From NCBI GenBank assembly GCA_041649175.1, contig JBAZNR010000001.1, positions 386,332 to 450,331 of the forward strand: 64,000 nucleotides of DNA, written 5' to 3'. The translations under genes and the position numbers were made by a program. Origin of the DNA: Candidatus Omnitrophota bacterium. Lineage in GTDB: Bacteria > Omnitrophota > Gorgyraeia > Zapsychrales > JBAZNR01. This document shows positions 1-62,100 of the stretch, one piece after another (within the stretch, counting starts at the first letter, position 1; each line of letters begins with the position of its first letter). The notes beneath the pieces were generated by a model that was given only the letters and a program-made list of their open reading frames with translations, was not told the origin of the DNA and ran no database searches.

Positions 1-2900
1 TGGAAATCATTTCTTTAAATGATGGTTGTTCGCTATAACGAGACACCGGAATAAATTCGAACGATAATCCTAAAGACGGAACAAAAGCGCCAAGCGCAGC
101 GCGCCCTGTATTGGCCGCGTCTTGCTTTAACATCTCTTCGGCGGTTTGAACGGCATCAAAGGTCGATTTAAATGTTTTGATCACCGCGCCGTCTTCCTGG
201 AAGGCCACCGGATTCATTTCGGCAATTTGCGTCACGTCGCCGGTAATGGATTCCATAAATAGAACCTGCGGCAGGCCATCGGCTTCTTTATCTTCGCGAA
301 CATCCAAATAATTTGGCAATCCGTAAGCCGGCAAATAACGCAACAACGCCTCGGCTTTGTAATAATTCGCCATGCGGTTTAAGCCAATTTCTTCCTTAAA
401 GAATTTAATGTATTCTGGATTTTCTTTTTGATCGATCTTTTCAGAGATCACGCGATGGATAGATAAGTCAACTTCATCTTTTCTGACGAGCTCATATTGA
501 TTGGTTTGATTATTGAAAACTAACTCGTGATATTTTAAGTTGAGGCCTTCCACCAACATTCTTTGGCCGTTGGATAGATCTTCCACCCAGCTGCCGCCTT
601 TTTGGCCTTTTTCGTTACGCACGGTCTCAATAACTACATTATGTCCCTGACTCATTAAATAAAGAACAAGCGCTAAGCGGTCTAAGTCGATGGAAGTAGA
701 AAGCTTCACCAGGTCATCCACATTGGTATTATTCATGATCAACGGCAGATCTTCGTTTGACGATTGATATTGACTTAAAAAGTATGCTAGGGCTGCTTCG
801 CGGATACGTTCATTACTGCTATCGCTCGCCAATACCTTTAAGGCGCTACCGCCGTGAACTGTTTGCATCAATGTATATCCATGCCCGAACGGACGGCGGA
901 ACGACACGCCATTTTCTCTGACATATTTTGTAAATCCTGATTCAGCATGGCGGTAACCTTCAAATGTGTGCTGAATGATGAACAGCATGTTTTCCGGGTT
1001 AAATCCGAAGAAGCGATAGTTAACAAATTCTTCCATGATCTGCGCGCCCGTCGCATCATTAACGTGAATAATAACTTTGGCATTACGGATAACTTCCGCA
1101 ATGTTAAGACCGTTTTCCCCGGCTAATTGCTCAAGCTCTAAGCGGTATTGGATCAAAAGGCGAGCACCTAAAGAAAAGTTCTGCGTGTTTTTAAATTGCG
1201 GATATGTTTGTTGCATATAAACTAGAAAGCGGTAAGCGACATATTCATCTAATTCTTTTTCACTAATATCATATTGCGCGTGCACGCCCGCCTTGATCAT
1301 CGACTCGGCGTCATACTTGGCTTTCATAATTTTTTCATTAAGCTCTTGCTTGGCCGCATCATTTAATTTTTCTTCCACATCCCATCCGGCCATTTCGGCA
1401 ACATCTTTTTGCATCAATTGATGCGGATTGAATAAATATTTGGCCCCGCCGCCTAAAATAGCCGCGGCACGCGTTGCCCCGCCGGCAAAAAGCATTTGAG
1501 CGATCAACCCGCCGGAGACCACTAATTGCTCAGCCTTTTGACGCCATTGGGTAAACACGGCACTTAAACGAAATTCGTTCAAGGAAACTCTATCGGCTGC
1601 TTTTAAACTATGCGGATAGCTATTCACTTTGGAGCCGTTAAAGTTAGTTCCGTTTTCGGTTAATTCCTGCAAATGGACGGGAACATAATTGGTGAAACTA
1701 TCTTGTGAACGGTAGGCGTGAGCCTGTGCTAAAACAGAAACCCAGCTGTCCCGGCCCGACCCAATGGTTGTTGCGGCCAGTAAAGCGTCTTGGCTTCTTA
1801 AATGATTCAAGGCATCGGGTAAATTCTTCGGTTCTTTAAAATCATGGATGATGTCGCCGTCACGTTTGAAGAATACCGCGTTGGCCTCAGCCATTTGCGT
1901 AATATCACCGGTCACCGCTTCTAAGTAGAGGAAACCGCCTTTGAAACGCAGATTATAAGGAAGGTCATTACGTAAGAGTTTGCGCAGGCTCTTAACTTGA
2001 TACAAAAGTCTGAAGGCATTATACGGTGCACCCAAACGGCCGGCTTCATCAATTAAAGCGGTTAATTCTTCGCTTCCCTTAACGTTGGATGTTTCAATAA
2101 GGAAATTCTTACCCGACTTGCTTCGCAAGGCATTGCCGCCTTTTTGTTTTCCCGGATTTTCTACCAGTTCGCCCACAATATCGTGGCCTTTGATTGTGAT
2201 CAGATAAATGCCGTAAGCTAATTTTTCAATATTGATAACTTCATCCACCAAAAATTTGGTTAAGTCATTGATACGGTGGCTTCCCATAAAGGCATTGCCG
2301 TCTAGCAGAGATAAAATATCTTTTTCACTATCGGCAACTTTCACGAGTTGGGTAAATTCTCCAACAACCTTAAGCTGCATAATGCCATAACCATGACCAT
2401 AGGGGATTTCCGGACTTTCGGCGGCGAAGATAAGCTGGCCGTCTTTTAAGGAATAGCCGTTTAAGGTCGGCTGAACGATAAAGTAAATTCTTTCCGGATT
2501 AAATCCGTAGAAATGATTTTCGGTGAAATCACGGACAATGCTTTCATGAACATCTTCATTGGTGTGGACAATGATGGTTTGACGCCCTAAAACGGCCACC
2601 GGATCAAGGTTAAATTCAACGGCTAATTTTTCTAAAGCCATACGATAAGCGATCAGTTGTCGCGGGCCCATGCCTAAACGGAATTGAGCCTCATCGACGC
2701 TAGCTAAGCCGGCTTCTTCGGCAAGTTCCCAAATATCAATGCCATACATAGGGCCACGGTTAAGGCGTGTGGCGGCCCCGGCGAAAATAAATTGAGGAAT
2801 ATATTGGCCGTATAATAAGGCTCTTTGGGCTAAGGTAATAAAGAAGTTATGGCCGGGTTTCTTTAAGAAATCGTCTAAAGAGAGGATTTCGGCCAAACTT
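1..2900 (-). other. Two tandem, mutually homologous modules of about 470 aa each with a sugar-nucleotidyl-transferase-like GGxGTR(L) signature (UDP-sugar pyrophosphorylase or NTP-transferase-like)
   Basis: Translated LLYGQYIPQFIFAGAATRL (about 2,760-2,820) and QMLFAGGATRAAAILGGGA (about 1,440-1,500). Both resemble the L-A-G-G-x-G-T-R-L NTP-transferase motif. The flanking blocks FYGFNPE..YGHGYG and FFGFNPE..FGHGYT repeat in the same order about 1.4 kb apart. The second module runs off the left edge. Confidence 0.4.
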
Positions 2901-5900
2901 AATTCGCTTGGAGCAATAGTGTCAAAGGCATTGATGCGGTCAATGATCTTATTAATGGCGGCTTCGGCGGCTTTAACAGCTTCTTCGTCTTTTGAGGCTT
3001 TGGCGCTATTGTATTGATTGATGAGGTTTTCTAATTCGGCTTTGATAGGTTCAATGAGGCGGGCAATGGTCGGAAGCAAATTGGCTTTTAGATCAGCCGC
3101 AACATTGTTCGGAGCAGACGTCTTTATAGCGAACCAGCCGCGCTCTCTGGCCAAGATGCCGAGGCCGGCGAGAACGATAAGGGCGCTAAGCGCCCCGGCA
3201 ACGATATTGGAAGCAAAAATGGCGCTTATCGCCCCCGCTACCATTACAATCGTCGCCATTACAGACGGCAATGTAAAGCCGTTGGCGGAGGAAGATAGAG
3301 AATTATTTTTATTATTAATCGGTGTGGTTTTAATAATCTTAACTCGTGCCGGAACATCAACTACCCACTTGGGCTCACTCCATTTTTCACTTTCAATCCA
3401 AGTCATATAGCTAACATCCCATTCCTTTTCAACTCCAAGATAATGCCCTTCTTCTCTATGGCCTTTTTCAGGAGAATACACAACTTCAAAGTTATGACCT
3501 TCTTCTCGAATTCTCAATGCTTCACGCAAATAATCCCACGCCAAGTTGAGAGGCAATGTTTTCTTTAAGATAGACAATACTTCAATGGCTAATTGAGTCT
3601 TTCTAATATTGTTCTCATACATTCTAAATATCTTTATATTATCTTCTGTTGATTCAATTTGATGTCTACCAAGAACACGTGTAATTTCTTCTATTTCTCG
3701 CGCATTATGCTTGTCTTTCGATATTGCAATGATTGCTTCAAAAACATATAAAACTCCATAAATAATTGGAGACAATGTGACTGAGAAGATGTATGCAAAC
3801 ACCATAAAGAATACCATCCATGCCCCCCTAGTTGGATCCGTGCTAGGATGACTAATATCATGATAAATGCCAAAGGTATAAGATATAGCAATAAATGATA
3901 ACGTTAAAATTACGAAGATTCTGCTGAACTTTTTATTGTCAAAGTTGTCACTTGAAAAAAGATAAGAATACAGGGCAAAATAAATAATTGCTACAAAAAT
4001 AAACGACACTACAGGATGGGCCAAAATTAATGTCCAAAATAAACTTAAAATACCACCTGCCGTTACCATCGCCATCATGGGCGGAAGGATGAAGCCATTA
4101 GCAGAAGTATTGTGAGGATCTTTATTAGCATCATTTTCTTTTGCCGGTAACACTTTCTTAATTAAACTCTTAACGTCGTTTATAAAATAACCTCGGCGGA
4201 TAGTTAATTCCATTTCAGCCTCCTTAGCAGATAATCCTTTGAAGAATGAACCGACAAGAATTCCGCCTAAGATCATCAAGAATGCGGCCGTTTTTGAATG
4301 AGAGCTGATCGTTTGTTGGAGGAGAGGAAGGATCTTGGTAGTGAACCACCATAATGTTACGCTAATGCCCGCTAAGAATATAGAGGCAGAAACTAATTTT
4401 GGCGCATCTTTCTTAATGATCATTCTAATTTTATTGCCGAGAGTAACTGGGATATTGTAAATCAACATTAACGCAAACCCTAAGAGGGTTAGCACAGTCA
4501 TAATAAATGTACCAGTCACATACAGATCAAAGTAATCTCTTGCTATTTTTAACTTGCTAAAAATCCACTCGGCCCATTTAAGCCATTTTACATTCACAAC
4601 TAAGGCATTCACAATACCTATAAAGGCATAAATAACGATTGTTCCTAAGATGGCATAATACTTATAGTCGCCAAAGAAGTAGAATCCTGCCGCTATTAAG
4701 CCCGCTGAAACTACGAGTGCAACAACACCTACTATCCAATTTCCTGCACCAAGCTTCTTAAAGAAATTACCAAAATCTTCTGTGAAATGTATTTTAGTCC
4801 ATGTCCACGCTCCAACTGTCGCCGGCGTAGAACCAGGATTTAAGATAAACGGAGCCATAAGAGCGGAAACAAGCATGAGAATAGGGAATAAAGACCAAAT
4901 AGCCGCCGGGCTTTGCCAGAGGAAAAGACCGCTGACCATTGCTAAGACAGCCGGAACGACCCACCCGAAACCAGGAAGCTTAATCTGAGAATATAAGTCA
5001 CCTTCTGTAAAAAGATCCTTAACGCCGGCAAGCCACATGAAAGGCAATCTATGTTCACGGCCGGTTCTGCGGCCTGTCTTAACATAATCACCGCTATTGA
5101 CCATGGCCTTCTTTTGACCGACAGAAAATGCATTGTAAACAAGCGACATATACACAATGGCCGCTTTAGGAAATACTCTTGCGAACGCTATAGATCCGTC
5201 AATAAACGTTTTCTCAAGAACCAATTGGAAATATCCGGTAAAGGTAATGGCCTGTGATAATAAAAGGCCAATGATACCAGCGGCTAATTCATCGGGGAAT
5301 GTAACGAAAAGACTGGCTCCAAATAAAATCACCACTATAACGTAAAGATTATTTTGGATGACCACAAAAGATTTTCTTAAGAAATAACCGATGGAAGCAA
5401 CAAAGTGCATAAAGGAACGGGAAAACCCGATAATGGACGAAGAATTATGCTGCGCGATTTCATACGATACGGCTTGTTCGCCGGCACCGGCACCGAATTT
5501 ATCAGAAATACCAAGTAACCCGCCATAAACACCTTCACGCGCTTTAGCCGCCTGCATAATTTCTCTATTAATGACTTTTTCTCCGTACATCGTCGCTTTG
5601 TAAGCGCCAAAAATATCTTCGTTAACCCACGGGGCACTTAAAAGGCCTAACTGACGGAAAGAAACTGTTCTGACAAAATCAGGATGCCCGTAATGATAAC
5701 GAATACCCATCCAGTTAAGCGAACGCTGAACCAATGTAGAGAAGGTATGATCACCAAAAGCGTGAACAGCACCGGCCGGCGTTGACACATCGGTAAAGAT
5801 ATCTTCAGGGAAACCGACGATCGCGACACGATTATCTTTAAATTCTTCCATCAGGTTAGGGGCTTTGAAAGTTTCTTCCAAATACATATCTTGATTCATA

Positions 5901-8900
5901 TCCATCATCTGAACAATTTCACCGCGAGTGAATCTAAATATATTGTTTTGGTTGACCGGTTTACCCTGCCCGGCCAAAGGCTTCGAAGATAGATAAATTC
6001 TTCTCACTTCAACAATTCTTCCCTTGCCTCTGTGATCGTTGAAAACAACAACAACTGTTTCTCCTGGTTGAGCCGGCCCTTCACGATACTCTAAAAGAAC
6101 ACCGGCATAGGTATCAACATCAGGGCTGTGATAATCGGTGTTCATATTCTTGTCGTCTCTAGGATTAGCTAAATAAGCGACTCTTAAGCCGGGATATTTG
6201 CGAAGCATATAGTTAACATCGTTGATAATTAACTTTTTGCTCTGGTCAGTGCTTTTTAGCCAATCGCCATACGGCTGATGGCCGACAACATATTCAAATT
6301 TTTCAGATACTTTTTCTTTTATTTCTTGTTCATATTCTTGTTTTGCATCCGTACTCGTAGAATCTATTCCTAAGCTTTCTGGTGTGGGGAAATTGACCTT
6401 AGCAAGCCATGTGTACATTTGATAATAATTCATAATACCGCGAATGGTACGGGCTAAAGGTTGATAGCGGTAGGAGACCCAAAGCCTTACCTCAATAATC
6501 AGATGGTCGTTTGTAATATCAAGTTTTTGTCCATATTGTAAGTTTTCTATGGCTTCAATATCTTTTTCAACCGCATCAACATCATCGGTTCCATATGTCC
6601 ATTTAAATCCAGCCTGATTGTATCTCAGGCTTTCGAATTCCCGACGTATACGGGCCTTAAAGTTTTCCCATTCATTAAGATGTTTGGTAATAAAGTACGT
6701 TAAAAGCGTCGCCTTAGTTTTGTAAGCTTCATTAATGGCATCATATTGCCCGACTGTTTTATCTGAGAATGGATACATGATCGGCTCATCAAAGATCGGT
6801 GTCGCAACGCTGAATAAATATAGCTTCTCCCAAATCGGCATTTGATCCATATCCATCAAGAAGGTGGAGAGAACAAACTGGATTCTTGCGCGAAGGCGTT
6901 GTGTTTCCGGGGCTTTGGAAAGATCCGGCCAACGAGTAACTGTTCCAGCTAAGAAATTATGTTCATCTATGCCATCAATAACAAATAACATTCTTTCTTT
7001 TTCTTCAATAGAGGCGAGGTCATCTTCCAAATACTGGCTGACGATCATGTTCCACGCTTTGGCAAAAGCAACGAGTTTTTCCTGTTCGGTAATAGCCCGG
7101 CGTTCTCTATCAGTACCAACAATAGAAGCAGGAACGATTTTCTCTTGGAATCCTTTAGCCGCCGCTTTAAATTTATCAATAACCGTATCGCCGCCTATTT
7201 TTTCAAGACCAATCCGGCCAAGCAAGGCATTAATAACGATAATACCAATCACAATGGCAGCCACAGCCCCGATAAGATAAAGCCAAGAGGAAGCAATCAA
7301 GCCGTGCACTCCGGCAATAAAGGCCGCTTTCCAAGGAGACAAATAAACAATACCCGCAACAGCCGCAATAAATGTCAGCGCTGATTTAACTCTTAAAGCA
7401 ATAGATGAAATGCCTTTGCCGCCCCAGCTGTTAATACGGTTAGCCCCGGTCCATTTAGCGATCCAGTACCCTAAGGCTCCTTCGATAATGTAGAAATAAG
7501 CGAATATATCCATAAGGAATATCATGAAGAAAATGGAGAATGTGATAGCGATAAGAATATACTGGCCGCCCGGAACTATTGGCCCTATTAGAGCCGTAAG
7601 CCGTTCCCACGGAATATTCCAGCTACTATTTTGCAGGATAATGAAAGCCTTAGATAACCAGCTCCAAATCAATACGTTCGTAAAAATCTTAGCCCCTAAG
7701 GTCAACACCATAACTAAAGAAGCACGGGCTTTACGGCCCAAGGTGCCATCCGGCGGATTATCTTTATAGCCTGCTTCGAACGGTACGGTTTCGCCATATC
7801 TTTGGTTCTTTAATGTATACTCTTGCTGATTGTGTCTATCAACAAACCAAATTGTGAAATAAGCAATAGCTAAAACACTTGTAGCAATTAAAGCGCCGAT
7901 AGCCCACGAACTAAATGCGATAACTCCGGTAAAATTCAAGCCGACCGCCGGAATACCGGATGTCAATCCGACAGAAGAAAGAATGATTGATCCGTAAAGA
8001 ACCGCAAAAATCTTCTTAAAGTTAACGATAACTCTAAACCAGCCTAAACGACCAAACTTAGATGTCTTGATGTCGGGATAAACTTTAGGAAGGATTTTAT
8101 TAACCGTGTCATTGCCATTAGCCAATTCTCTTTCAATTTCAGCCCGGCCACCGTTACGGTAAAATTTAATAAATCCAGGTGTTCTAAAATAACCTTCCAC
8201 ATCATTATGATGGATGGTCGCATATTTTGTTTTGCTCTTTGCTGACTCACTATGAGCAAAAATAATCCTGCTCCAAAGCGCCGCTTCAGCTTCAGCTTGT
8301 AATCCAAATTGATCATTACCGTTATTTAATAGTTCCATACCAGAGAAGAACCGATAGAAATCAAACGACGCTGTAACGTTGGCTAATTTATCTCCGGAAA
8401 GATTGATAAGATTATAAATGTACATCTCTCTTAATCCGTATTGGTCAATTTCTCTCAGCGCAGCTTCATAGTCGTCTGCGCTTAACACATCTTTCATAAC
8501 CGGAATAAACCAAACATGCTTGTATCTACGGAAGAATTCTTTTCGGATATCATCGATTGATTCACCGGAAAATAATCTTCGGCTTACTTCGGCTAACAAT
8601 AGATATTTGGCCTGGTCAACAACGCCGTTCTGGAAGCCATAAGATGGATAATTTTGAATTTCAGACAAGAAATTCTTAATTTCATCACCTGTATGTTTAA
8701 GAACAACTTGGTCAATAATATTTTTCTTAGGAAATAGAGATCTGAATAGTTGCTTGATCCAGGCGAGTAATTTACCGATGGTCATAACACCGGCGATATA
8801 AAGCGATATTAAAAGCAATATACCGCGCCAGATACCGATCTGGTTTAACCAATGCCAGAGTAAATGAGGCCTAATCTTATCAACTTGGTGATCGCCGACA

Positions 8901-11900
8901 TATGTATACTGCTGATCATAGACTTTTGAAACATCCATGCCTTCAGATTCACCGATAAGGATGACTGTTTTTTGATACATACCATCGGGTAATTCAAGCT
9001 CATACTCCTCGTTTGCCTGCTTGGCACCAATGATACTGAAATCAATATCCTTATAAACTTTTACTAAGTCACCATTTTCTAAGAAACTGAATACCGGTTT
9101 GCGATAAGAAGCGGTGGGATCATAAATGGTTGTTTCAACTCCGTTAACGGCAACGCCAAGTTGTTCTTTCATGATCTGCATACGAACAAAAGCATATCGT
9201 TCGGCTAAGAGGCGTCCACCGGGAGAATAAAGGACATTTGATTTGAATTTTGAATCGAGAACATGATACTCATTACCAACAATTGCGATCCGTGATCCAT
9301 CAGGGGTCGTCATAGACATTGTGAGCGGCCCCAACTTTTCTCTGGAAATCATGAACTCACGATCCAAGGTATCTTGATAGGCAAACGTAAACGCAGGATC
9401 TCGATCATTAGGGCCTTTATAGATTTCCACAAATCCAAGCTCACGGCCTTTTTCAACGACCATAACACCCGGCAAAAGATCTTCCGGCATGCGTACTGTG
9501 TCGGTTCCGCCGTTGGTAATAACTAAGGTCTGCGCTTCAAACCACCAAAGATTAAGGCCCAAATCGTTATTGGCGTAAATAGCGGCAATGTCACGGCCAC
9601 GGCTATCGTTAGGAACTAAATAATGGTAAATTGATCTTCCCTCGATAGAAGAATAAGCCCCATCAATATTTATTAATCTCGGCTTTTCTTCAATAATAGA
9701 TAATTGTGTCATCGGAGCGATACCGAGCTTATTCAAACCATCCCAAAGGTTTAATGTCGGATCATTAAATCTCCTGTTGGAAACATCGCTGAAGATACCC
9801 TCAACGCCCTGGTTGAATAATTGTCCGGCACTGATCGTTAATCCACGTTGTTGAGCTGCGGAATCAGATAATGTTCCAAAGGTAGATTTGACTTCATAAT
9901 CCGGAGTTAAGCTATAGGATCTTGTTAATTCACCCGTGCGAGGATCAAATTGTTCAGCAACAATGATCTCCAACACTCTGCCGAGTTCTATGCGGATCGT
10001 TATGAATTTTCTGGCTAAGTGGTCAAACGGAATGCGGTAATCGATGGTTTGAACGCCAAAGTTATTGGTCACGATGGTCGGCTGAAGAACAGTGTTTTCA
10101 TCAATGCCTAATGAACGAAGAGCTATGTTTGTTTCAGAGTTCTGGAAGACTTTTCCGGAATCAATCAAACCGGCTCTAATATTCTCACCTTGTTCGGCGA
10201 TCCAGGCCTTTGCCCAATTGGATTGAGGATCCGGACGATATTCAACAACGCGCTGGATAAATTTGGAATCTTCGTTGTATCTATCGGTCGCTCTCCAGTA
10301 ATAAATATCTCCGTTGATTTGAGCTAATAATTCGGTATCTTTCGTATATCCGACAGGAAGCTCGATAAATCCGATCTGCATATTTTTAACGTAACCATAA
10401 ACTTTATCGTATTCCGTTCTTTCCACAGGAGCATATCCGCCCCATCGATCAATTTCACGAAGATTGATAAACGTTTTGATAACGGTTGAATCGTTTCTTT
10501 GAATATCATAGACACCGGTCACATTGTATTGCCAGCCGCTATGTCCGTTTTGACGGCTAATAAATAAGGAATCAACGCCAAGATCTCTCGAGGAATCAAG
10601 CGATGTTGCATAAACTTCATCCCAGGTGATCGGGTTGACATGAATATCTTCTTGCTGAACGGTGTGTTGGCTACGAACGAGATTGCCTTTACCTGTGAAC
10701 GAATCAACCTGTTTAAATTGGCTTAATTTATTATGGATATACCAAGTTCTATTGTCAGAAGTCGTGCTGTCAGTGACACTGAACCAATTTAAGGAAATCA
10801 GGCCTTTAGCGGAATCTGCGGCCATTTTCTCGATAGCTTTCGGTAAGAATTCGAACGGAGCCGGATAAGGTTCTCTATCTCTTCCATTAACATAGTGGAG
10901 ACTGACAACTTCATTACTCTTTTGTCTTAAATCTAATTTACGAAGGCTTTCAGGATATCGATGATAGATAGTTCCTTCGGGGCCGATTTCCATCGCGAAA
11001 TAATTATCATGAACCCAGTTCATGAACGCCACGCCCTGACGGCCAAGCTCTAATGGAGCTTCTTTGTAGAATTTACCGGACGGTGAGGTGTAATTGGCGA
11101 CGGTGGTGCGATAAACAGGGTCGCCATTTGCATCAACTCTATCTAAGACAATGCCCTTTAAGCGGCCATTGGTTCCATCCACTAAAGCCTGCAACATCGG
11201 TTGTGTGACAGCAATGGAGCTTCCGCGAATAACCCCAAATCCTCTGACATAGCTTAATTCACGCTCGATCGTCGCGATATTGCCTTCGACAATGATCGGA
11301 TAAGCGGAACGTAATTCACTGGATAATTCACTGCCGCGTTTTGGCGTAATAACCATGGTGCGGCCGGTTTCATCGCCAATTTTGATCGGATATGTTTTGC
11401 CTTTATATTCCACGTGAATATAGTAGTTGCTGGAATCATCACGGGTAATACCGGCCGCTTTTAATTCTTCTGGTTTCATAAACGTAAGCGGTTTGCCCAG
11501 ATCATAAACATCACTTGTCACCGCACGCGGCGCTTTTCCGTCGAAGAATATGGCATAACCGGCGTAAGAGCTGTCAGTTAAAGCCGCTAAGTGTTCTCTA
11601 ATCACTCTAGGCCCGTAGGTAAAAATATCTCCGTCTAAGGTTCTATCCGCCGTAACGGTGTAGAATGAATCCGGAACGGTAACTTCTAATCTGGATGTGT
11701 CAGCTTGCGTCTTCATTTCAGCCGGCATAATTAGCGTGTCGCTTACAACCGGCGCAACAACAATGTTAGGAAGTTCTGTAATATTTTTGGATTTTCCACC
11801 GACTTTAACAATTGTCTTTTCAACAGATGCACCGGGAATAACTTGCCCATTGTTAAGATCGGCTGTCACTCTGGCACCGGCGGAAACATCACCATTATCC

Positions 11901-14900
11901 CGATAAGCGGATACGCTGCCGCGCCAATGGCTATCGAAGGCTTGTCCGACGTTAACATGAACGCCTTTAACCGGTGAAGCTTCTACCATCCAGGCAGGTT
12001 TTCCATCCACAAAACTAAAGGTTCCCTTAAAAGATTTGTATTGAATTCCGGCTGTCGTTCTGTCGAGCGTTTTTCCGCCTTTAAGATCAGCCGCCTGTTC
12101 AACACTGATGGTGATAGGGCCAAGATCTAATCCGGCACCGGCAACGCCATGAAGTTCTTTTGTTTTTCCCCAAAGATCATCGGTGCCAAATTGTTCGCTA
12201 AGAATAGAAAAGTTTAAAGTTAAGTTATCCGAAGCCTGAAGCTTGAAGGTCGCCTTCTCAAAACTATATTGATCTTGGGCTTTTAAGGCAACGTCGGATC
12301 TGTTGACAAGAATGCCCGTAAGACCGTCAAAAATTTCGATACGAGAATTAACATTGCCTTCGGATTGAGCAAGGCCGGCTTCTAAAATAACATTGGTGCG
12401 CCCGCTGGTGGAAATATCCAAAATACCGTTTAAGCCGGTAATGCGGTCCAGATCACCCTCATATTCTTCAACGCCCTGGCTTTTTTTGTTAATTTTTAAT
12501 TCATTGGAACGATATGTTTCGGCTTGGAAAATACCGCTAATGCCTAAATAAACGGTATTGGATTTATTATTCACGCCGATATTCTGGATCAAAACGAAGT
12601 AACGGCTGGTTTGTGTTTCAGTGTACCCATCGATAGGCCACTCATTGAAGCTGTAGCTTTGCATTTTTCCGGCGATGGTCTTGGAAATCAGTGTCGCTTG
12701 TTTATTGGTCAGGTCAATACCGACTAAGGCGTATTTAGAACCCATTCCAAGCGCTTCCGGCTGGACCTGGCCGACAAAGGCGTTGACACCGCCAACACCT
12801 AAGCTTTTTAAAATATCAAAAGCGGCGATCTGATTGGACGCGGAAACAATGGGTTTACCATCGCTATCGGTAAGCCGGTTAATAACAGATTGCCAAACTT
12901 GAGGAGCGGTTTGATTATTGAGGGTGAATTGATCGAGGTTAACCAGAGGAACAACTTCGCCTAAGACGTGTAAATTGCGGCCGACGCGAACAACCGCCGG
13001 AGGGGCGTGTTCAAGAGTCGCTAAATATTCTTCGAGCGCTTTGACCAGATTTTCTTTTTCCCCGATGGATAATGTATCGTTGGCATTGATCTGAACGGCA
13101 ACGCGCTCTCTTATTTCGCCTAAGATGCGGTTATATTGTTCATTGCCTTTTAAATAGCTTTCAAAAACGGCGGTAGCGGCATCATTGGCTTCTTTGGAAT
13201 TTTGTTCGGCATTATGAACCGCGCGAATACCCTGCATTTGCTGACGAGTTCCTTGAGCATGATCGCCTAAACTGCTTAACATATTTCCGAGCGGATCGCG
13301 TCCGGCGCCGGTGCGGTCATTGATGCGTTTAATGGATTCTTCTATTTGTTTGGTCCAATAATCTTTGTATTCTTCAACGCTGGCAGAATCAGAACCGATA
13401 TGAGAGAAGATATCATTGAACGCGTATAACCGTCTTAACAATTCAAGGCGCTCACTCTTATAGTTAAGCTGATTGATGTAGAATTCCAATTTTCTCACAA
13501 TAACATCAATAATGGATTCTTCGTTGGTATTGCCCGTCTGGAACAATGAATCTGCTGTTAAGTCCGGATATCCAAATTGGATGATATGCTCCGCTTCGCG
13601 TTCGTAGTTATGGGCGAGGCTGCCGGCTAAAGATCTTACTTCGACTAAAGAATCAGGCAGGCTGTCTCTTAAGGCATTCCAGAATGCAATGCTTTGCGGA
13701 ATGCTTTCTTCAACCGCCGGGTCAAGCCTGTCATTGTAATAATCTCTGGTTTCAGGGATCGTGTACACGCCAAAGGGACGTTTGCTATCTGCCGGCCAAG
13801 TCAAAGGAGAGATAGGAAGCAATAAGTGGTAGCTAACGGTCGTATTATTTAAGGCGTCGTTGATGATACGAATGGTATTTTCTTTCCAGGCGATATAGTC
13901 AATTTCAATGTCTCTTTTAACGGTTAAGATCTCTTGAGGCATTTCAAAGAAGGCAGGAGCAACAGCGTATTCCATGGCATCATTAGCCACTCTGTCTCTT
14001 TGTCTTTGAACAATACCAATACCGACTTGTGTATTGTGGATCATATCCACTGTTAATTGATGCCATGCGCCCTGTTGTCCGCGAGACACGATTTCTTGGC
14101 CTTGCCAGAATGGTAAGGCTTCATTAATACGCTGGACAGCTCCCATGACCGGCGCGTTAGGCGTTTGATCATCTTCATCAAAGTAACGAAACGCGGACGC
14201 AATGGAATCTTCCGGCATAAGGATATTGGCATAAGATAAGCTGTCGCCTCGTTCAAGCCAGATATTAAGCGTATCTAAATAACCAAAATGACGGGCTAAA
14301 TCAGCATTTGCTGAATCAAGTGTTGTATCGCTCCAGCTATAAATATCAGAGATCGGGATGATCGTTCCTTCATGATTCCTAAGGTGATTTAAGTTCTCTA
14401 TGAGGATATCGGTTCTATCAACATCAGCTTCGAGGCTGTCGAGATCAGAGGCCTTAATAATTCCTGAGCTTGAATCCATGGCCGCAAAGTATTCTTGGCG
14501 TAATCCGCGAATTGCATTGTCCGCGCCCAATGTATCGGCTTGGACTCTAATATCAGCCAATAAAGAATCGAATGTCATCTCACGAGAGGTCGCTACTTCG
14601 TGAATGAAATGATAGATATTTAATTTGGAGGAAAGCTTCACTTGTTCTTCCGGTATGGCTCTCATGATCTCATTAAAGCTAAGCCCTTGTTTTCTTAATC
14701 CTTCTTCAATGTCATTTGAGCGCAACTGAATATAAGCAGAATCGGCTTCTTGAGAAAGAAGTTGAGCATTATCAAATTGGCCGCGAAGCGAATCAATAGC
14801 GGATCTTTCTACCGCTAATTGTCTGGCTAATTGTTCTAATGAAGCGCTGTTCAATCCGGCTAAAGATAAGACTTCATCTAATTTTTCTACATCCGCTGAC

Positions 14901-17900
14901 ATCTGGCTGACGTAAAACGATAAAGGCATAACAACACTATCCGTAACGACTTCAGTCGTTCTTTGAGTAACCGGTAAGCTATCTATGTAGAAGGTTCTGT
15001 TACCTTCACTATCAATGCTGACACCAGAGGCATCACGCTCATAAAGTTCTTTTTTGAAATCAGGAACATTAGCGCCGTATTCTAAAATACCGCCTTCGTT
15101 GGCAGCCGGATTAACGCGCGGGCCGGAGATAATGGCTTTTGGCGGTAAGCGGCCTTCTTTAGGAGTAATAATGACTGAGTCAGTCACAACATCGTTCTTA
15201 TCAAACCAGCGGTAAATAATTGATTGACCGGTTCTCAGATCCTTCGTGTTGATCGCATCCATTTCGGCTTGCGTATAAAGATAATAGCTTCCGTGAGGCG
15301 TGATAGCGCGGGCTAAAGGAACACGATTAGGCTTAGCAACTAAGATGCCAACTTCCCCTTCTTTAACGATAGTTGTATCGGTAACAACGGTTAAACCTTT
15401 AGGTAATGTCACCGCGTAAGAACTATCTCCTCTGGTTTCATGAACGGTTAAAAGAACATCTTGAGATTCTGTTAAGACGCTTGATGAAACCGCGCTCATA
15501 TCATTCACAGCCACGGTTCTGGTTCCACTGGCGCCCATTACAATGACATCCGCTTGTTGGCCAACGTCTTCACGGTTGAACCAATAATCGGTCAGGGCTG
15601 TTTCTTCGCTGTAAATAACGACCGGATGAATGGCGCGTCCATCATTGTAGCGGCCAAGATCGCCCGCCGGGTTGACATCCGCTTCAGCCACACCGTCCAC
15701 TAAAACATTCATTCCTTCGCGATGTGGGAGAACTTGTTTGACAGTTAACGGTACGCCTCTGGTTTCATAATAGGTAGCCAGGATCTCGCCGGTTATAGGA
15801 TGGATCTCGGCACCGACGATACGATTACCTTTTTCATCAAACCCGACATAAATATTATATTGTTTTTGGATATTTTCCAACATCTTAGCCGACGGAACAA
15901 TGTAGCGTTGGCCGGGCTGCATATCCCAGGCTTTATTTTCCGGATGTTTAGGATCATCAATGAATGTCTGGATCAAAGGAACATCGCTTCCCTCTTTGGT
16001 TAAAAAGCGTGTGGATGAAAATTCCAAGTATTTTCCTGCCTTGCCTTTGCTTTCCATATATTCTTGAAGATTATATTTAAATCCAAAGACATACCACTGG
16101 GCCGGATCTTTTCTTTCGCGGCCGTTTTCATCAATGACAATTAAGCTGTCGCCTTTTTGTCCGCGTTCGATCACATACATTAAATTATTATCTTTGTTGT
16201 CATAGGCGATTCTGTTGAACGCGACCTCTAATTGGCTTGGGATATACGCAACACTATAGCCGTCAAAGATCCAAGATTGACGTCCATCACCGAAGATTTG
16301 CTTTCCAATGCCGTAACCAAGTGCTTTTCTGAATACATCAGGGAAAATGGCGGCCGGGCCGAATTGATAAAAATTACCGTTATCGGAAGCGATAAAGCTG
16401 GAGTCTTTTAAGACCGGATTGGTATGGAATTTCGTATGTTTAAAGGTTAAGGCATTAATGAACACAGAATTGTCGGTGGATTCCCAGATCCCGCCGTTTT
16501 GTTCGGGGTCAATTTTATTGCTGACAATTTGATTACGAACACCGGATATGGCGTCGATCATATAAACGGCGCCGGCAAATTCACCGAGGGTCAAATGTCC
16601 GCGGAAAAGGTGTTTGAAGGATTCATCGGCGCCCAAACCTTGGTTGAGCAATTCAAAATACGGCGTGTACGGTGAATTGATAATAACGTTGACACCAAAA
16701 CCCTTAAGGTATTCCGGTAAAACTCCATTGAGCGATTTATGATATAAGGCATTGCCCGGTTTCCAATTCCATCCTAAACCTAATCCTAAGCGGGTTGCGC
16801 CTGTATTATAGGTTCCATAAATATTCTGGTAGTCATCAATGATCTTCGATTGAACACTGTCAGGTAAGGAAACAAAGCTTCGGGCATGGGCTGAGATAAC
16901 GGCATAGATGCTATTATCTAACTTATGAATTCTTTCTAAGGAAAGAACCGTATCGCTTAAGGCGAGGCTGTCCCATGATCGCAATTCTTCTCGCATATCT
17001 TCGATGTTGTGGATAACATCTAAAGAATCAGCGATAAGTTTTGCTTCCGCGGAATCAAGCGCGGCCGTTGTGGAGGCGGCCAGTGGGAAGCTGATATTTT
17101 TATTGCTTAAATATCCGTCCGGATCAACAGCTTTACCATTGATTCTTACTTCAAAATGCAAATGCGGTGTTGTAGTGTTATTGGCATTACCGCTGATACC
17201 GGTGAAACCTAAAGTGTCGCCTTTGCTGACTTCTTGGCCGGCTTTCACATTTGTTTCGCTTAAATGAGCATAAATAGCTTTCGTAGCGCCGCTATCAACC
17301 CAAACGTGAAGCCCGAAACCATCTTCGCTGTTACCGACACCAACGATGCCACCCTGCGCCGCAATGACCGGAGTTCCAACGGAAGCGGCAATATCAATAC
17401 CGCCGTGTTCGTAACTCACTTCTTTTCCATCCACCATCTTGGTTCTATGGTCGCCAAAATGCCCGTTCGGAGTTAACGTGAAGAGGTCAGCGCTAAGATC
17501 TAAGGCTCTATTTGTTTCTAATTGGGCTGTTTCGGTAGGATCATTCTCAACCACCGGCGTAAATTCTTCGGTTGAGTTAGAAGCGCCAAATGTGCCCGGG
17601 CCTTCAATAGCGTAAGGATGTTGTTCGGCCGCGAAAACATCCGACGGCATCGCAACCAACATGCCGGTCAAGTAAGATAATCCTAAGAACACTGAGGTCA
17701 ATCTCGGATGACGGCGATAAACATCACGGACGAGAGCAAAAATAGATTGTGGTTCGTCATAATACTCTTCAGCGGTCGTCTTTTCCTGGAAGGCCGCCCA
17801 ATTTTCCTCCGGAGTAAGTAGTGTTTCCTCTTCGGGCTCTAAACCTTCTCCGCTGGTCGCGTTGACATCTTCTTCGGTGTAAAAACCAAATCCCGCTTTG

Positions 17901-20900
17901 TAAATCATACGGCGATGTGCATTCATTAATTGCTCATTTAATTCTTCTTCAGTCAATTCATCAAATGTTTTAGCCGGCTCTACGGTTTCTTCTGTTGAGA
18001 TCTCTTCCGTTGCGGGTTCTTCTGTAACAGCCTCTTCTTGAACTTCTTCTTGCGTGGATTTTTCAGCGCGAACTCTCTTTGTTTCTTTGACAATGGCGGC
18101 AATAACTACGGCAATTGCACCTACCGCTAAAATACTGCCTCCGTTGTCGGGAGAAGCTGTTGTGCTAGCCGTCGTCTGGGCGAAGAGATTACTGCTTGGG
18201 GCAATGATCATGGCAATGATGAACGCGTCTTTGAGATGTTCTCTGAACCATGCAAAAACCGGGGAAAATTTTGATCGATGGGTGAAGTATTTGATTGATC
18301 TTTGAACACGTTTTAAGTTGTAAACGATCGGCGCTACGGCAGCCCAGAATATCATTGCGCCGATCGCATAAGCAATGATATCCCCTATGTCTTCGGTCAA
18401 CGTAAGCCAATAAAGATTGTGCTGATTAATAAAGTCGCTAAAGAATTCTTGTATGCTTAAAGCAACCGTCACGGCCATCAGCGTCACAGGGAAAAGATTA
18501 GGATTAACAGGCTTAATGGGCCTGATCTTTTGTTCCGGAGAACTGTGTTCGTTAAACATGAACTTGGCAATGATCTTAGATTTTCTGGCGATCTCAACTA
18601 AACCAAGAACCACGCTTGTATACCACATCGGATCTAAGACATTAGCGAAATAATCATGCGCCAACGGGCTGATAGCTTTAAAATCTATATAAGCAAAGAA
18701 ATAAAGGAAAATAGCGATCGGCGCGAAAACAAAGTTCTGTCTTAATGAGTAAACTCCGAAAAGGATCGTGCCGCCATAAATAATGATCGGGGATAAAATA
18801 CCTAAAATGCTGGCATCCCACGGCCAAACATCGCCTTGCGCGCCAAAAGCCGCAACTGCCGTTACGGCTAAGGCGGCGAGAATTGCCGTTAAGAAGTTCG
18901 GAGCGACAAAAGAGTTCTTGGTTTTTTCTGATTTAGTTTCTGCTAATTCAACTTCCTGTTTGGCGGTTTCATTGTTCACAAATCCATACGTGCCCGGCCA
19001 GAACCAGAGGAGCGCGATCTGCCCTGCTGAAAACGCCAATTTTAAGATCGGGTCAACCACGCTTACGAACCATTGCGGCATATTGCCTTTACCGAAAAGT
19101 AATTGCGTGGCGTCTGTTTTGAGATAATTTCCGCTGGCGTCTTTGCCCGGGATAAGCGGAATGAGGTTCATAACAAAGAGGAATAAGTTAAGCCAGAAAC
19201 TGTTGGATAAGGCAATGGTTATCAAAAGCTTGAGGCTGATCGCGCCGATCATGATGGATGCAGGGAAGAAAGCAATGACAGCTAAAAGCAATAACCCGGA
19301 AACAGCGAATAATTTAAAGTTATTCCCAGGGCCGGCAAAAATAACTTTTCGATATTCGCTTCCAGTCGTGTAGTCATGGTTGACGCTGACCGGAATAGCC
19401 GCGCCGACTTTAATACCTAAAAACGGTTTAAGAATCGTTTCTTTAAAACTAATGTGCTTCCAAATCTTCCAAACGGTCGCTCTTTCAGGTAAAGATTCTG
19501 TCTTATCGCCAAATAGCAAGGCTGTGATCGCGTGTCCATATTCGTGATAGGCCAAGTAGAGAAGAACGGACGGCCAGACAACAGCCATCCACAACCAACG
19601 TTCCCCAACGAAGAATCCAACAAAAGCCATAAGATCAAATTGACCTAAAGCTAACACAGCGTCTTTCATGGTCGTCAATAACCCGCCAACAGAAAGCATG
19701 GTCGGGTCAATACCGAAAAGTGCGATCGCGATCGCCATCAAGGCAACCGTAACAATTGTACCGACCACAGCAACCGCCACCGGTAAACCGATGCGTTTGA
19801 GCAAAGAATCTTTTTCACGTAATGGCTGACCGTCACCTTTAGTGCGCGGGAAACCTTCCCCGGCTAAACGGTCATGAGCGGCAACGGTAGCTATTTCTTT
19901 AATACGTTTTTCGCTCAGCAATTCAACAATATCTTTTAAAGGACGATTACCGATCAACATCATCTGTAAGACGCGGCTAATCGCTAAAGTCTCTTTGAAT
20001 AATCTTAATTGGCCGTCTTCATCTTTTTCATCAAAGCTGACAATAGAATTTCCGTTAATGAAATCTCTATTAGAAAGATGTTGACCTATACTGCGGCGAA
20101 TAACTTCTCTTTCTTCTTCAGAGGCTTCTAAAATCTTACTGAGGGAAATTGTTCTGTTATTCTGGTTCCAGATCTCACCTAACTGTTCTTCCGTTAAGTC
20201 TAAGCGGCCGCTCACTAAACTCAAGAAGATCGCTTTTTCTTCTTCGGTTGAAAATGACTGTACGGCCCCAAACGCTTGATTGATAGAAATTGACGCTACA
20301 AAATAATCGGAAAGGCCGAATAACTTTTTAGCTTGTTTTTGAGTTAAAGTACCACGTTCTAAAGCTTCTTTGCCCTTTGTGGTTTTCCAAAATCTCTTGA
20401 GCCACGGACGATCTTTGGTCAAACCTTTAAGTTGATCTTTATCAGCAACCAGATAAACGGGCTGATCTTTAATCGCTTGAGCGGTTTTCTTAACGACATC
20501 AATTTTGGCCGGATCAACTAAATATTCATTGTTGGCGAAGTAAAGTGCGGCGGCCGACGGATTGGAAAGAATGAAATAAAGTGTCGAGACATCAATGGTA
20601 GCTCTTAAGAATTCTTGGGCTAAAATCGCATTGTAAAAAAGTTGCGGATTGTTGGTTAAATCTTCAAATCGGTCTAAAGCTTCTTGCAAGGCGGTAACGT
20701 TCATATCATCCTTAATGAACGGCAGGACTTTTTCGTCTTCAATGCTTAAATCTTCCGTTGCCAATGTGCCGTTAGAAAGCCAAAACGCGCGTGCGTCTAC
20801 GGTTAAAGCACCACGGCGCACTAATTCAAATCCTAATTCTCGAAGTTGACGTTCGAGAGCAATGCGGCGTTTTTCAATATCTAATTCTTTGGATAAATAA

Positions 20901-23900
20901 CCTAAGGCTTTGATGATCTCTTCTGCTTCTTTTTGAGCGGATTTTTTGCCGCTTTGAAGAATATTCATCAGCTTTTCATTTAATTCTTTAGCAATATCAT
21001 TTAACTCATTCTCGGCTTCTAAGATCTGTCTAGAGGCTAAACGCTCGATATTGCGTAAAGCGCGGTTGTAAGCTTGTTCGTCATTTTGAATTTCATCGGT
21101 TAAGTCTCTACCGGAATCTCTTCCTTCTTCTTCACGAAATTCATACGTTAAGGTGAAGACTTCAACCATGTGGCGGTCATAGGATTCTAAAGCTTGTTCG
21201 TCTTTTTTATTGAAGATAAGAACAGTTAAAGCTTTGATGGCTTCTAAATTAGCTAAGGCGAGCTTGGCGCGTTTGCCGTCATACAGACGATGAATGGCGC
21301 TAATGATCTCCTCTTCATTGTATTTACCCTTCTTTAGATCAAAGGCAATGCCTTCGGCGATCTCGGAATAATCGAAGAGATTGATCTCTTCATCTTCTAG
21401 GGTTAATGTTTCACCGGCGAGTAAGCGGATAAGAGCATCTTCATCATTGGCAACTAATCGTTCCACGAGGATATCAGCGGCGGCACCGCGTTCAAAAGGC
21501 TGTTGGGCGGCGTCTTCAGTGTTGCGAGTCTTTCCGGAGAGAATATCTAATAATTCACTTACCGGTTTATTGGCTAAGGCGCGATACGCGCGGGTATAAC
21601 GGACATCATCAACTAAAGCGGAACCGTTGTTTTGATTTCTATTTAAAGGAACCACCCGGCCGGCGTCTTTTTGGCCGTTTTTGCTTTCAGCTGCCACGGA
21701 GACCGAGGTATCCCTCGGGAGGGGCCGAAGGGCCTCGGCTCCGTTGTTGGCAACTTTAAATCTGTTAGAATGACCGTTTAAAGACCGCGCGAAATCAACT
21801 AATTCCATCGTCATGGAGAAGTCTTCGTCTACGCCGACTTCATGATTAACAATAACCAATTGACCTAAGGAACGAACGGCTTTTAATGAAGATTTGATCT
21901 TTCCTAAATTGGATAATCTTTGATTGATCTGAATGCGTTCATCAAGCTCTCCTCTGCCGAATGTTTCTAAGGCGAATACAATAGCGGCTAAAGGATTCAT
22001 CATATCTTGAACGCTATATTCATCGCCTACCATCAAACCGGAGATCAAAGCTTTTAATGTTTCATCTTCAGTAGCGTCAAAAGAATCATTGATGAAGTTT
22101 CTTAAATTACCGGCCTTGATGTAAAATTCGATAAATTTCGCTTGGTCAACAGCGCCGTTGGAGTTGGCTTCGTTCCAAAGTGTGAATAATTCCGCAATTT
22201 CGGCGATCAGGACATCAATGAATTCTCTTGTTTCTTCGGTCATCCGTCTTTTAGTTGCCGCGGAACTCAAGTCATTCTGCATAACAGAAGCTTGAGTTCC
22301 GTTGGCAACATCGGATCTGCCTTCCGCCACGGAAGAGGCAGATCCGTTTAATGAAACATGGATCCAATCAATGATCGTAATAAGCGGAAAATCTCTGGTG
22401 GTAATCGTCGGCCAAGATCCTAAAGAAAGCCACGCAATCACATTGGTTAATCCTTCGGAAAGGTCGTCGGCTAATTTCACCATTTCATCTTCGTTGTAAT
22501 TTCTGGCTTGGGCCGCTTCGCCTAAGGCTTGGGCTTTCTTGGAAAGATTGATTTCATCTAAAACTCCCATTGTGCTCAGGAGAACTTGTTCCATGCCTCT
22601 GTAGCCTTCAATGTTTTGGGCGATCTTTAACAGAAGCTGATCAACGATATAGATGTATTCGCCGCGACGTCTCACCGACACTTTATCGCGGGCTTCGGCG
22701 AGATCGTTTTTGATGCGAGTAAGCATCTTGATCAAACGCTCGGCTCTTTGTTTGTTGACGGTCGTTCTGACGCGGTCGGAAATAAATCCCGGGAATATTT
22801 CAGCTAAGGATTCTTCTTGGTGTTCGGTAACCGGCGCAACAGGAGCTCTGTCAGCCGTAGGTTCTAATCCTTCGTTGGATTTAACCAACATCTCGATCGC
22901 ACGGTTAATTCGGCTTTGGAATTGCTGTTCGGTTAAGATCCAGCTCATTTCAATTCGTTCAAACGCGGGATTGAAGAGGCGGATCACTTTATCTTCGAAT
23001 TTATCAGTGGCAAAACTTAAAGTCGCCGCGAAAACCATGGCGAAAACAACCCAGATGAACCAAGGCTGATGAATAATATTCGCGATTTGATCAGCAAAGC
23101 TGACATGGGAAACAACGCTTAAAACTGTGTCTTGAGCGGCGTTGAATGTATCCACGGCAGCTTTGGTTAACGTATCAATGACGGTTGTATCTTGAACAAC
23201 CGGCGTTGTCACAGTTTGAACAGCCGTATCAGCAACTGCCGAAACGTGCTCGACACCGGTTAAGGCGTTTTGCACCGTTTCAGGCAATTGCAAATTGGAA
23301 AGATCGATGCTTTCTCCGACGCGAATGACATCAGGATTGAAATTATTATTTACGCTTGCGGCAAGGCTGTCGGCTTTATGAGAAGCGCCGTTGAATAATC
23401 TTCCGGAGAGAAGCGATTGAACATATCCTTGCGGATCGACCATTTGGTAGGCCAATCTCATTTTCTCTAAGATATGGCCCCAGGTATCGCCGTTTTGGAC
23501 GATGGCCTGAAGTTTTCCGGAAGCGTCATAAGCGAATTCAACAGCCTGGGCAACTTGAGCGTCAATTAATTTGGCGAGGACAACTAAGGCGGTTACGATT
23601 TTCTTGAGGTTAGATCTCAATGCGGGAATGACACGTAAAGCTTGGGGCGCCTTGTTGCCGTGCAATGACGCTGCGATGGCGAACAACAGTTTGCTCATTC
23701 TCTGCCAGAGGATGCCAGCGATTTTGTTGGCGCGTGTAGACGCGTCCGCTGTTGTGGATGAGGAAGAGGCAGAGCTTGTTTTGTTCCCCGCGGGCGGCAG
23801 CGAACGTGCAGTCGTCCTTGGGGTAATCAATGAAATGCTTAAATTGTAAAGTATCCATAATACACCTCCGTGGCTTGTAGGTTTATTGTTGGATTTGGTT

Positions 23901-46815: not shown

Positions 46816-46837
46816 TATTTTCTCACCAGTTAGTTAA

Positions 46838-46966: not shown

Positions 46967-46969
46967 ATC

Positions 46970-53752: not shown

Positions 53753-53759
53753 CAATATT

Positions 53760-62092: not shown

Positions 62093-62100
62093 CTGTGTAT

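Follow-up and report, generated by a model that had tools for sequence, protein, structure and literature searches.

In a preprint on the long proteins of Omnitrophota, one group of Pfam families is described, in the accessible part of the text, as a 'sugar metabolism' module, which comprises starch synthase, GT1, phosphoglucomutase/phosphomannomutase (PGM/PMM), response regulator and ROK (10.64898/2026.06.07.730766). As far as its main text is accessible, the word 'pyrophosphorylase' occurs nowhere in it, nor is UDPGP or glucan synthase mentioned (10.64898/2026.06.07.730766), and a preprint on giant genes of the 'Archaeovorin' type likewise makes no mention of pyrophosphorylase, UDPGP or glucan synthase (10.1101/2023.11.21.568195). 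The present analysis concerns a giant gene in a stretch of 64,000 nucleotides (from here on the window) of a Candidatus Omnitrophota bacterium (contig JBAZNR010000001.1, positions 386,332 to 450,331 of the forward strand), and in particular two homologous modules, m1 and m2, which make up the final ~970 visible codons of its reading frame (window 2-2923). Like the published giant proteins, the gene product combines an N-terminal C39 peptidase with many transmembrane helices and few Pfam matches, and a cluster resembling type II secretion system (T2SS) and Tad genes lies adjacent (10.64898/2026.06.07.730766; 10.1101/2023.11.21.568195). Predicted fold and profile comparison place both m1 and m2 in the UDPGP superfamily (PF01704), i.e. 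with UAP1/AGX1, UDP-glucose pyrophosphorylase (UGPase) and UDP-sugar pyrophosphorylase (USP). This module, which is invisible to Pfam, is missed by the Pfam/InterPro panels of both preprints.

Of the described enzymes, UAP1/AGX1 (1jv1, 2yqs, 4bqh, 8yp3) is the best structural and profile match of both modules. The Thr-Arg of the loop is aligned, as are YFGL...V-F-F-Q with FYGF...V-F-I-x-Q and P-x-G-N-G with P-Y-G-H-G, and in both cases a helical N-terminal extension precedes a Rossmann-like core. On the other hand, identity to UAP1/AGX1 is only 10-17%, two loop glycines are alanines in the modules, the lysine of the Pro-Lys pair is absent, the asparagine of GNG is a histidine, and the region after the catalytic core is helical in the AlphaFold models. 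Moreover, the modules are embedded in a membrane protein of more than 15,000 residues, whereas UAP1/AGX1 is a soluble enzyme of ~500 residues.

With the eukaryote-type UGPases (7ppr, 8c0b, 3r2w, 2icx) the likeness lies in the C-terminal half, where E-L-x-x-K-T-x-x-D-V-KGG is aligned to ELVxNPxxQKGG of the module family, LLE to L(I/V)E, and FNTNN to the conserved N298 (m1 numbering, in which the frame residue equals the number + 14034). The substrate of UGPase would also suit the GT48 synthase that lies beside the modules. UGPases carry a P-x-GHGD motif that is similar to the GHG of the module family (a resemblance outside the alignments), as well as a C-terminal beta-helix; the module models have no such beta-helix and are helical there instead. 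Unlike the modules, UGPases have a loop (G-G-L-G-T-S-M-G) without arginine, and their profile matches are weak (E=9e-4 to 0.4). The NTP_transferase family (RmlA, GalU, GlmU; PF00483) has the general chemistry, a related G-x-G-T-R-(L/M) loop and a Rossmann-like GT-A-type fold in common with the modules, whereas the downstream motifs of the modules (FYGF, GHG, QKGG, DFK) are of the UDPGP type.

Tandem modules and their predicted fold

The two modules carry the same motifs in the same order, with equivalent motifs 1.30 to 1.51 kb apart, and align to each other with 29% identity over 364 residues (BLASTP, E=5e-30). The preliminary description of this DNA, made from its letters, had proposed two homologous tandem modules with conserved blocks in the same order, and this is borne out: the peptides it quoted are present and the copies align. 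They form a real and ancient tandem pair, i.e. long-separated paralogues that are set side by side. At the DNA level the likeness is confined to a single stretch of 64 nt (70% identity). A recent tandem duplication was rejected, since hardly any similarity is left between the DNA sequences and the copies fall in different subfamilies. No third copy was found by phmmer in the 15,004-residue frame.

A length of ~470 residues per module, as first estimated, does not fit either copy. m1 measures ~380-440 residues, m2 ~500 residues with two insertions, namely additional helices that follow the nucleotide-binding loop and ~40 residues, mostly beta-stranded, behind the LVEGLN motif. The second module had been thought to run off the window, with the gene continuing to the left. 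The latter is right, since at least 202 more codons are present on a Logan contig, whereas m2 itself is complete in the window up to TFK (window 155-184) and QD, with which its conserved motifs end, and only the sequence that follows it is cut.

Routine annotation does not recognise the modules. Neither m1 nor m2 has a match to any Pfam family at E<=1, including NTP_transferase and UDPGP (the profiles that had been suggested as a check), nor a match in NCBIfam, and single-sequence phmmer searches against all PDB chains gave no match either. The gathering threshold of PF01704 is thus not reached by m1 or m2, and the family lies outside the current Pfam model. The relationship to the UDPGP enzymes is revealed only by profiles and predicted structures. 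With the profile of alignment A1, the top 12 PDB matches are all UAP/AGX/USP (best E=4.9e-4); the profile of alignment A3 (44 sequences) has nothing but UAP, UGPase or USP among its first 19 matches (best 4bqh, E=1.2e-7), while a profile of the C-terminal half finds UGPases (7ppr, E=9e-4). The family-profile alignments are in motif register, with AGAATRL on GGQGTRL (FAGAATRL on LAGGQGTRLG of UAP), FYGFxPxxVxFIxQ on YFGLxxExVxFFxQ, P-Y-G-H-G on P-x-G-N-G, I-N-D-L on I-D-N-L, ELVxNPxxQKGG on ELTDKTxxDVKGG, L-I/V-E on L-L-E, and N298 on FNTNN.

AlphaFold2 models built with family alignments have a predicted local distance difference test score (pLDDT) of 83.9 for m1 and 85.4 for m2, with a predicted template-modelling score (pTM) of 0.84 in both cases. 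When these models are compared with the PDB by Foldseek, the 50 best matches of each are all UDP-GlcNAc, UDP-glucose or UDP-sugar pyrophosphorylases (best for m1 8yp3_A, E=2.6e-16; best for m2 2yqs, E=2.5e-14), with probability 1.00, TM-scores of 0.42-0.62, ~380-550 alignment columns and 8-17% identity. Both predicted structures match the UDPGP fold, with its Rossmann-like centre and helical N-terminal extension. The NTP_transferase family (RmlA/GalU/GlmU) is absent from the 50 best structural matches of either module. The motif resembling that of sugar nucleotidyltransferases, on which the preliminary description was built, is thus in register with the UAP loop, and both models match UDP-sugar pyrophosphorylases only; what changes is the assignment, which is pyrophosphorylase-like as had been supposed, yet to the UDPGP superfamily (PF01704) and not to NTP_transferase (PF00483).

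The modules also belong to a sizeable family. A word-indexed search returned 24 relatives, mostly stand-alone proteins of 430-740 residues without a Pfam domain, and those with a named source are mostly from Omnitrophota. When 1.84 billion cluster representatives were searched with a profile, 413 clusters reached E<=1e-3, and of these 163 reached E<=1e-30. Members either stand alone (~450-550 residues) or sit inside proteins of 1,000-7,700 residues, mostly from Omnitrophota, and at least 10 proteins among those listed have two module copies. When 143 domains were scored against m1 and m2, 127 were m1-like and 16 m2-like, which puts m1 and m2 in different subfamilies; tandem pairs elsewhere consist of two m1-like copies. 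Stand-alone proteins of ~450-480 residues are seen in the m2 type as well (P0076, P0085), and P0070 is a 63%-identical orthologue of m2, whose gene is called with an ATG of its own, 39 nt into a 3.2-kb contig.

Several further observations on family members can be recorded here. P0070 (L006 40-3226) extends ~360 residues past the module (residues ~700-1062) without a Pfam match, and this tail holds ...KAPKAGASQAQAHMQLMRF..., reminiscent of the H-x-H-x-Q nucleotide-transfer motif of the GalT/HIT type; what follows m2 in the window cannot be aligned with this tail. The arrangement of the window recurs in a further giant-gene fragment, from an Omnitrophota metagenome-assembled genome (L002, JAHJJA010000162.1, 10,327 bp), the whole contig being one stop-free frame of 3,441 codons with a tandem module pair (match 2985-7340, 40% identity). 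Many large members (e.g. of the P0034-P0059 type) share a conserved N-terminal region without Pfam annotation, which in the N-terminal ~400 columns of alignment A2 has the consensus LPxxG...NPLxFxFIV...WVNLSPYEKxRIIP...GRDLLAQDYxLKQLTASL...LKVMLEEDYLA...RKYFSGG, and the C-terminal ends of these proteins have GGID-type motifs.

Putative active-site motifs, fusion partners and the candidate reaction

Across the 143 family domains, 21 positions are conserved at >=85%, and all 21 are kept in both m1 and m2: G35, G45, A47, R49, G82, R84, F134, G136, H173, G174, D216, N252, K257, G258, G259, E273, N298, E331, G335, D336 and K359. The Gly, Ala and Arg of the loop are conserved in 88-95% of domains and H173 in 99%, while D216, K257-G-G, E273, N298, E331, G335-D336 and K359 each reach 85-99% (92-99% for D216, K257-G258-G259, E273, N298 and K359, which are present in m1 and m2). 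The family consensus motifs follow each other in the order FAGAATRL, LGMGPRQ, H-x-N, FYGFxPxxVxFIxQP, PYGHGY, HRINDLTK, ELVxNPxxQKGG, FLIE, PYNAFR, YLExVTGD, IHDFK and QD. Judged by the profile alignments and by what is established for UAP1 and UGPase, most of the 21 positions lie in UDPGP active-site elements that bind nucleotide, phosphates and sugar (the Gly/Ala/Arg of the nucleotide-binding loop, GHG, D216, K257-G-G, E273 and N298). The alignments support the prediction that the Gly/Ala-rich xAGxATR motif is the nucleotide-binding loop, and K359, in IHDFK, may, to judge by motif and position, correspond to the lysine of P-(L/V)-K, which is the catalytic one.

The domains to which the module is fused tell something about the pathway in which it might operate. 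According to Pfam, 7 of 26 large members contain PGM_PMM, and other domains found in these 26 are hexokinase, ROK, nucleoside-diphosphate kinase (NDK), starch synthase GT5 with GT1, Glucan_synthase, NAD-dependent epimerase/GDP-mannose dehydratase and several GT2/GT4, with PF01704 itself matched in two. In a local iterative search of all 88 representatives of >=800 residues, 17 proved to have a PGM-like domain, in most cases immediately next to the module. Examples of the arrangements are hexokinase (residues 392-797) followed by a module (1002-1427) in P0036, a module (352-781) followed by PGM (807-1350) in P0037, NDK (421-541) followed by two modules in P0025, and GT5/GT1 (176-640) followed by a module, a response regulator and a second module in P0027. 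A phosphohexomutase yields sugar-1-phosphate, NDK yields nucleoside triphosphate (NTP), and GT5 and GT48 consume NDP-sugar. Because these partners cover the steps before and after, the missing step is that of a sugar-1-phosphate nucleotidyltransferase. The fusion partners are, moreover, Pfam families of the 'sugar metabolism' module described for Omnitrophota long proteins in the accessible part of the preprint (10.64898/2026.06.07.730766).

In the giant gene itself, the immediate neighbour of the modules is a GT48 catalytic domain like that of the beta-1,3-glucan synthase FKS1, together with its transmembrane block. The domain is recognised by Pfam (Glucan_synthase, PF02364, frame residues ~12705-13233, E=4.6e-72), aligns to residues 748-1316 of yeast FKS1 (E=5.8e-40), and has the motifs NQN...RGE.(I/V)Q..D.NQD.YLEE, HYGHPDF, NEDI(F/Y) and GAG.GEQ in common with it. 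Like fungal FKS1 (7xe4), it has transmembrane clusters on both sides, and unlike FKS1 it is one segment of a bacterial giant protein; m1 starts 76 residues past the last hydrophobic helix of the GT48 block, after a helical linker. GT48 enzymes use UDP-glucose. To our knowledge, the family is overwhelmingly eukaryotic, and we know of no FKS1 with a fused pyrophosphorylase. The occurrence of a eukaryote-type GT48, flanked by transmembrane blocks, inside a bacterial giant protein is an observation in its own right.

The preliminary description had the modules fused to peptidases in a surface protein, where they might bind or modify glycans. Neither part is supported: Peptidase_M23 lies ~4,700 residues and Peptidase_C39 ~13,800 residues upstream, and the fusion partners seen in the family (PGM, hexokinase, NDK, starch synthase) point to a predicted role in cytoplasmic nucleotide-sugar synthesis instead. 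Both modules are best read as members of a deeply diverged, unannotated UDPGP clade, predicted to be cytoplasmic NTP:hexose-1-phosphate nucleotidyltransferases, probably making UDP-glucose, that feed the GT48 synthase; to this reading as a whole we give a probability of roughly 60%. We infer catalytic activity, the identity of the substrate, the cytoplasmic location and the coupling to the synthase. Each module would bind an NTP (probably UTP) through the xAGxATR loop and a hexose-1-phosphate (probably glucose-1-phosphate) through GHG, D216, QKGG, E273 and N298, and the lysine of (I/V)xDFK would catalyse the conversion of NTP and sugar-1-phosphate to NDP-sugar and pyrophosphate. Since the substrates are confined to the cytoplasm and the catalytic domain of GT48 has to face it, the modules are predicted to be cytoplasmic; they would thus lie on the cytoplasmic side, directly C-terminal to the GT48 membrane block and on the same polypeptide, and provide a local supply of UDP-glucose to the neighbouring synthase. 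Being of different subfamilies, m1 and m2 might make two different nucleotide sugars or form a catalytic and modulatory pair.

A number of points weigh against this reading. Relative to the canonical signature L-x2-G-x-G-T-x-(M/L)-x4-P-K, the module sequence F-A-G-A-A-T-R-L keeps one Gly, the Thr and the Arg, so that the signature is only partial, with alanine in place of two of the three glycines in the loop (in P0022, another family member, the loop reads AGAGTRMG). No lysine is aligned to the Pro-Lys of the signature; that R84, in the family-specific and nearly invariant LGxGPRQ, stands in for it is conjecture on our part. PF01704 searched against the modules of 44 family members gave one sub-threshold match (1/44, E=0.0036). 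A GT48 domain lies directly upstream of the module in only 2 of the 88 large members (P0057 and P0117, local search). As for the membrane topology, hydropathy and positive-inside counts are too crude to fix the number or the orientation of the 11-13 helices between GT48 and m1. The neighbourhoods of three stand-alone members are weakly informative, one of them being in a polysaccharide cluster with GT2, epimerase and aminotransferase genes and the remaining two giving no hint. Finally, a canonical UDPGP domain of the USP type (AGGLGERLG; PF01704 E=2.3e-13) accompanies the module in P0075 (residues 128-690 and 961-1135), a combination which may mean that the specificity of the module differs from that of the classical enzymes and is not redundant with it.

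Some of these departures would be expected of pseudo-enzymes, i.e. proteins of UDPGP fold that bind a nucleotide sugar or NTP and regulate or scaffold the glucan synthase or other parts of the giant protein without catalysis, possibly in the case of m2 only. Besides the nucleotide-binding loop that departs from the canonical G-G-x-G-T and the Pro-Lys lysine without aligned counterpart, the large insertions of m2 and its far lower score against the m1-type majority would agree with such a role, and plant ADP-glucose pyrophosphorylase provides a precedent of paired catalytic and regulatory paralogues. This is nevertheless unlikely, given that all of the positions conserved at >=85% are kept in both modules, many of them in active-site motifs, that stand-alone m2-type proteins (P0076, P0085) are hard to square with a purely regulatory appendage, and that the direct fusion of modules to PGM, hexokinase and NDK agrees with a catalytic step in a pathway.

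It is also quite improbable, though conceivable, that the modules are active enzymes of UDPGP fold with another reaction or substrate (an ADP-, GDP- or CDP-sugar, a non-hexose phosphate, or a polymer or protein that is nucleotidylylated) and have no part in supplying GT48. The combination of the module with the canonical UDPGP domain in P0075, or with starch synthase GT5 in P0027 (bacterial starch synthases of this family typically use ADP-glucose), speaks for this, as do the replacement of the sugar-contacting GNG of UAP by GHG-Y and the presence of two different subfamilies side by side in the giant gene. On the other hand, the retained motif set is that used by UGPase/UAP for UTP and hexose-1-phosphate, phosphohexomutases are by far the most frequent fusion partners, and the substrate of GT48 enzymes is UDP-glucose.

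Finally, chance Gly/Ala-rich loops in low-information sequence without a real repeat (or, as the preliminary description had allowed, an unrelated fold or copies that fail to align) would agree with the absence of Pfam and NCBIfam matches on either module, yet this was rejected as next to impossible in view of the m1/m2 alignment (E=5e-30), the family of 413 homologous clusters (163 at E<=1e-30), and the confident AlphaFold models with specific matches to the UDPGP fold for both modules.

One more fusion deserves mention as an observation. In P0084 an m2-like module (499-1002) is followed by a DprA/SLOG-type domain (1168-1359; DNA_processg_A E=8.6e-36, LDcluster4), a pairing that is surprising for a sugar nucleotidyltransferase; the ligands of SLOG domains are derived from nucleotides.

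The giant gene and its surroundings

In a six-frame stop scan of the window, one frame of the minus strand proves free of stops over 15,004 codons (window 2-45013), to which all frame residues in Table 1 refer. The gene crosses the left window edge, which means that region 1-2900 is the most C-terminal visible part and not the start of the gene. On the Logan SRR8542065 contig (47.5 kb) the same gene is called from the ATG given in Table 1, with 15,190 residues, and it is still open at the end of that contig. A scan of genome contigs for a leftward extension returned only relatives of <=52% identity, and the first 49 bases of the window have no exact match among the metagenome contigs scanned. 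Pfam recognises three domains only over the 15,004-residue frame (Peptidase_C39, Peptidase_M23 and Glucan_synthase). Hydrophobic helices were located with a Kyte-Doolittle scan (19-residue window, threshold 1.8), which is a crude method.

Table 1. Coordinates of the giant gene, its recognised domains and the module motifs (window positions in nucleotides, frame positions in amino acid residues)
Feature	Window position	Frame residues	Strand	Basis or remark
Giant open reading frame	2..44965		-	>=14,988 codons in window; start codon called on public contig at 44965, stop-free reach to 45013
Peptidase_C39	44165-44416	~200-283	-	Pfam; near N-terminus
Peptidase_M23	17120-17410	~9202-9298	-	Pfam
6 hydrophobic helices ahead of GT48	7220-8839	12059-12598	-	Kyte-Doolittle
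FKS1-like GT48 beta-1,3-glucan synthase catalytic domain	5327..7072	~12648-13229	-	yeast FKS1 alignment
~11-13 hydrophobic helices between GT48 and m1	3149..5365	13217-13955	-	Kyte-Doolittle
m1	1604..2923	14031-14470	-	core to ~14410, remainder low-confidence linker
m2	2..1603	14471-15004	-	module to ~14975; last ~30 residues are the start of what follows
m1 predicted nucleotide-binding loop FIFAGAATRL	2762..2791	14075-14084	-	G45, A47, T48, R49 in m1 numbering
m2 predicted nucleotide-binding loop MLFAGGATRAAAILGGGA	1442..1495	14507-14524	-	same alignment columns as m1 loop
m1 motifs FYGFNPERIYFIVQP through PYGHGYG	2384..2512		-	match UAP YFGL...FFQQ and P-x-G-(N/H)-G (profile alignments to 4bqh, 1vm8, 8yp3, 2yqc)
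m2 motifs FFGFNPENMLFIIQH through PFGHGYT	872..1012		-	located by alignment to m1
FYGFNPE (m1) / FFGFNPE (m2)	2468-2512 / 968-1012		-	motif location
PYGHGYG (m1) / PFGHGYT (m2)	2384-2404 / 872-892		-	motif location
m1 putative active site, C-terminal half: HRINDLTKF, ELVENPGKQKGGN, FLIETSN, APYNAFR, LYLEAVTGD, IIHDFK	1820..2278		-	half-profile aligned to UGPases
m2 putative active site, C-terminal half: NTNVDDLVKL, ETVRNEKGQKGGS, MLVEGLN, GLNRMANYY, LFMESITGD, VIKTFK	155..730		-	motif location

More than 90% of the giant protein is without annotation. A further cluster of ~9 hydrophobic helices is present in its frame (residues 7318-8975). Directly upstream of the giant gene lies a Tad/type II secretion-like gene set (window 45910-47827 and 59927-63720, minus strand), which includes two T2SSF-family membrane proteins (Pfam matches), a 721-residue protein that resembles a CpaF-type secretion ATPase with a ParA/MinD-like N-terminal part, and a 539-residue protein that resembles a secretin with a TonB-like C-terminal part; its position agrees with the published siting of giant genes near T2SS-like loci. 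Three proteins rich in Cys, Asp, Asn and Trp, each with an N-terminal hydrophobic helix, are encoded at window 48571-51720 (1,049 residues), 52229-53818 (529 residues) and 48049-48567 (172 residues), all on the minus strand. For the 1,049- and 172-residue proteins no Pfam matches are recorded on the Logan contig. These proteins may be pilus-associated or secreted. In the first half of an 827-residue open reading frame at window 56683-59166 (minus strand) there is a long Pro/Glu/Ala/Val repeat of low complexity (PEVVPEVAPEAAPEAAPE...).

Meaning for the giant proteins of Omnitrophota

Giant proteins of Omnitrophota carry hardly any annotation. With the recognition of two further putative enzyme domains, and of a family (at least 413 clusters) that is overlooked by routine annotation, ~1,000 residues of the present protein gain a testable function. 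The family would also be a candidate for the nucleotide-sugar step, which the published Pfam inventories of giant Omnitrophota proteins lack as far as these are accessible. The stand-alone members of 430-550 residues offer a practical route to direct expression and assay.

A wider, and tentative, possibility is that this UDPGP-like family is the missing sugar-activating step of the Omnitrophota 'sugar metabolism' giant proteins, which would then be single-chain lines leading from free hexose to exported polysaccharide. In such an assembly line, hexokinase/ROK, phosphoglucomutase, NDP kinase and a polymerising glycosyltransferase (here GT48) would be carried on one membrane-anchored polypeptide, with m1 and m2 as a hetero-pair that either makes two different nucleotide sugars or consists of one catalytic and one allosteric unit. 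The adjacency of GT48 suggests that part of the giant protein builds beta-glucan rather than degrading the walls of prey, which shifts how the giant proteins of Omnitrophota might be interpreted.

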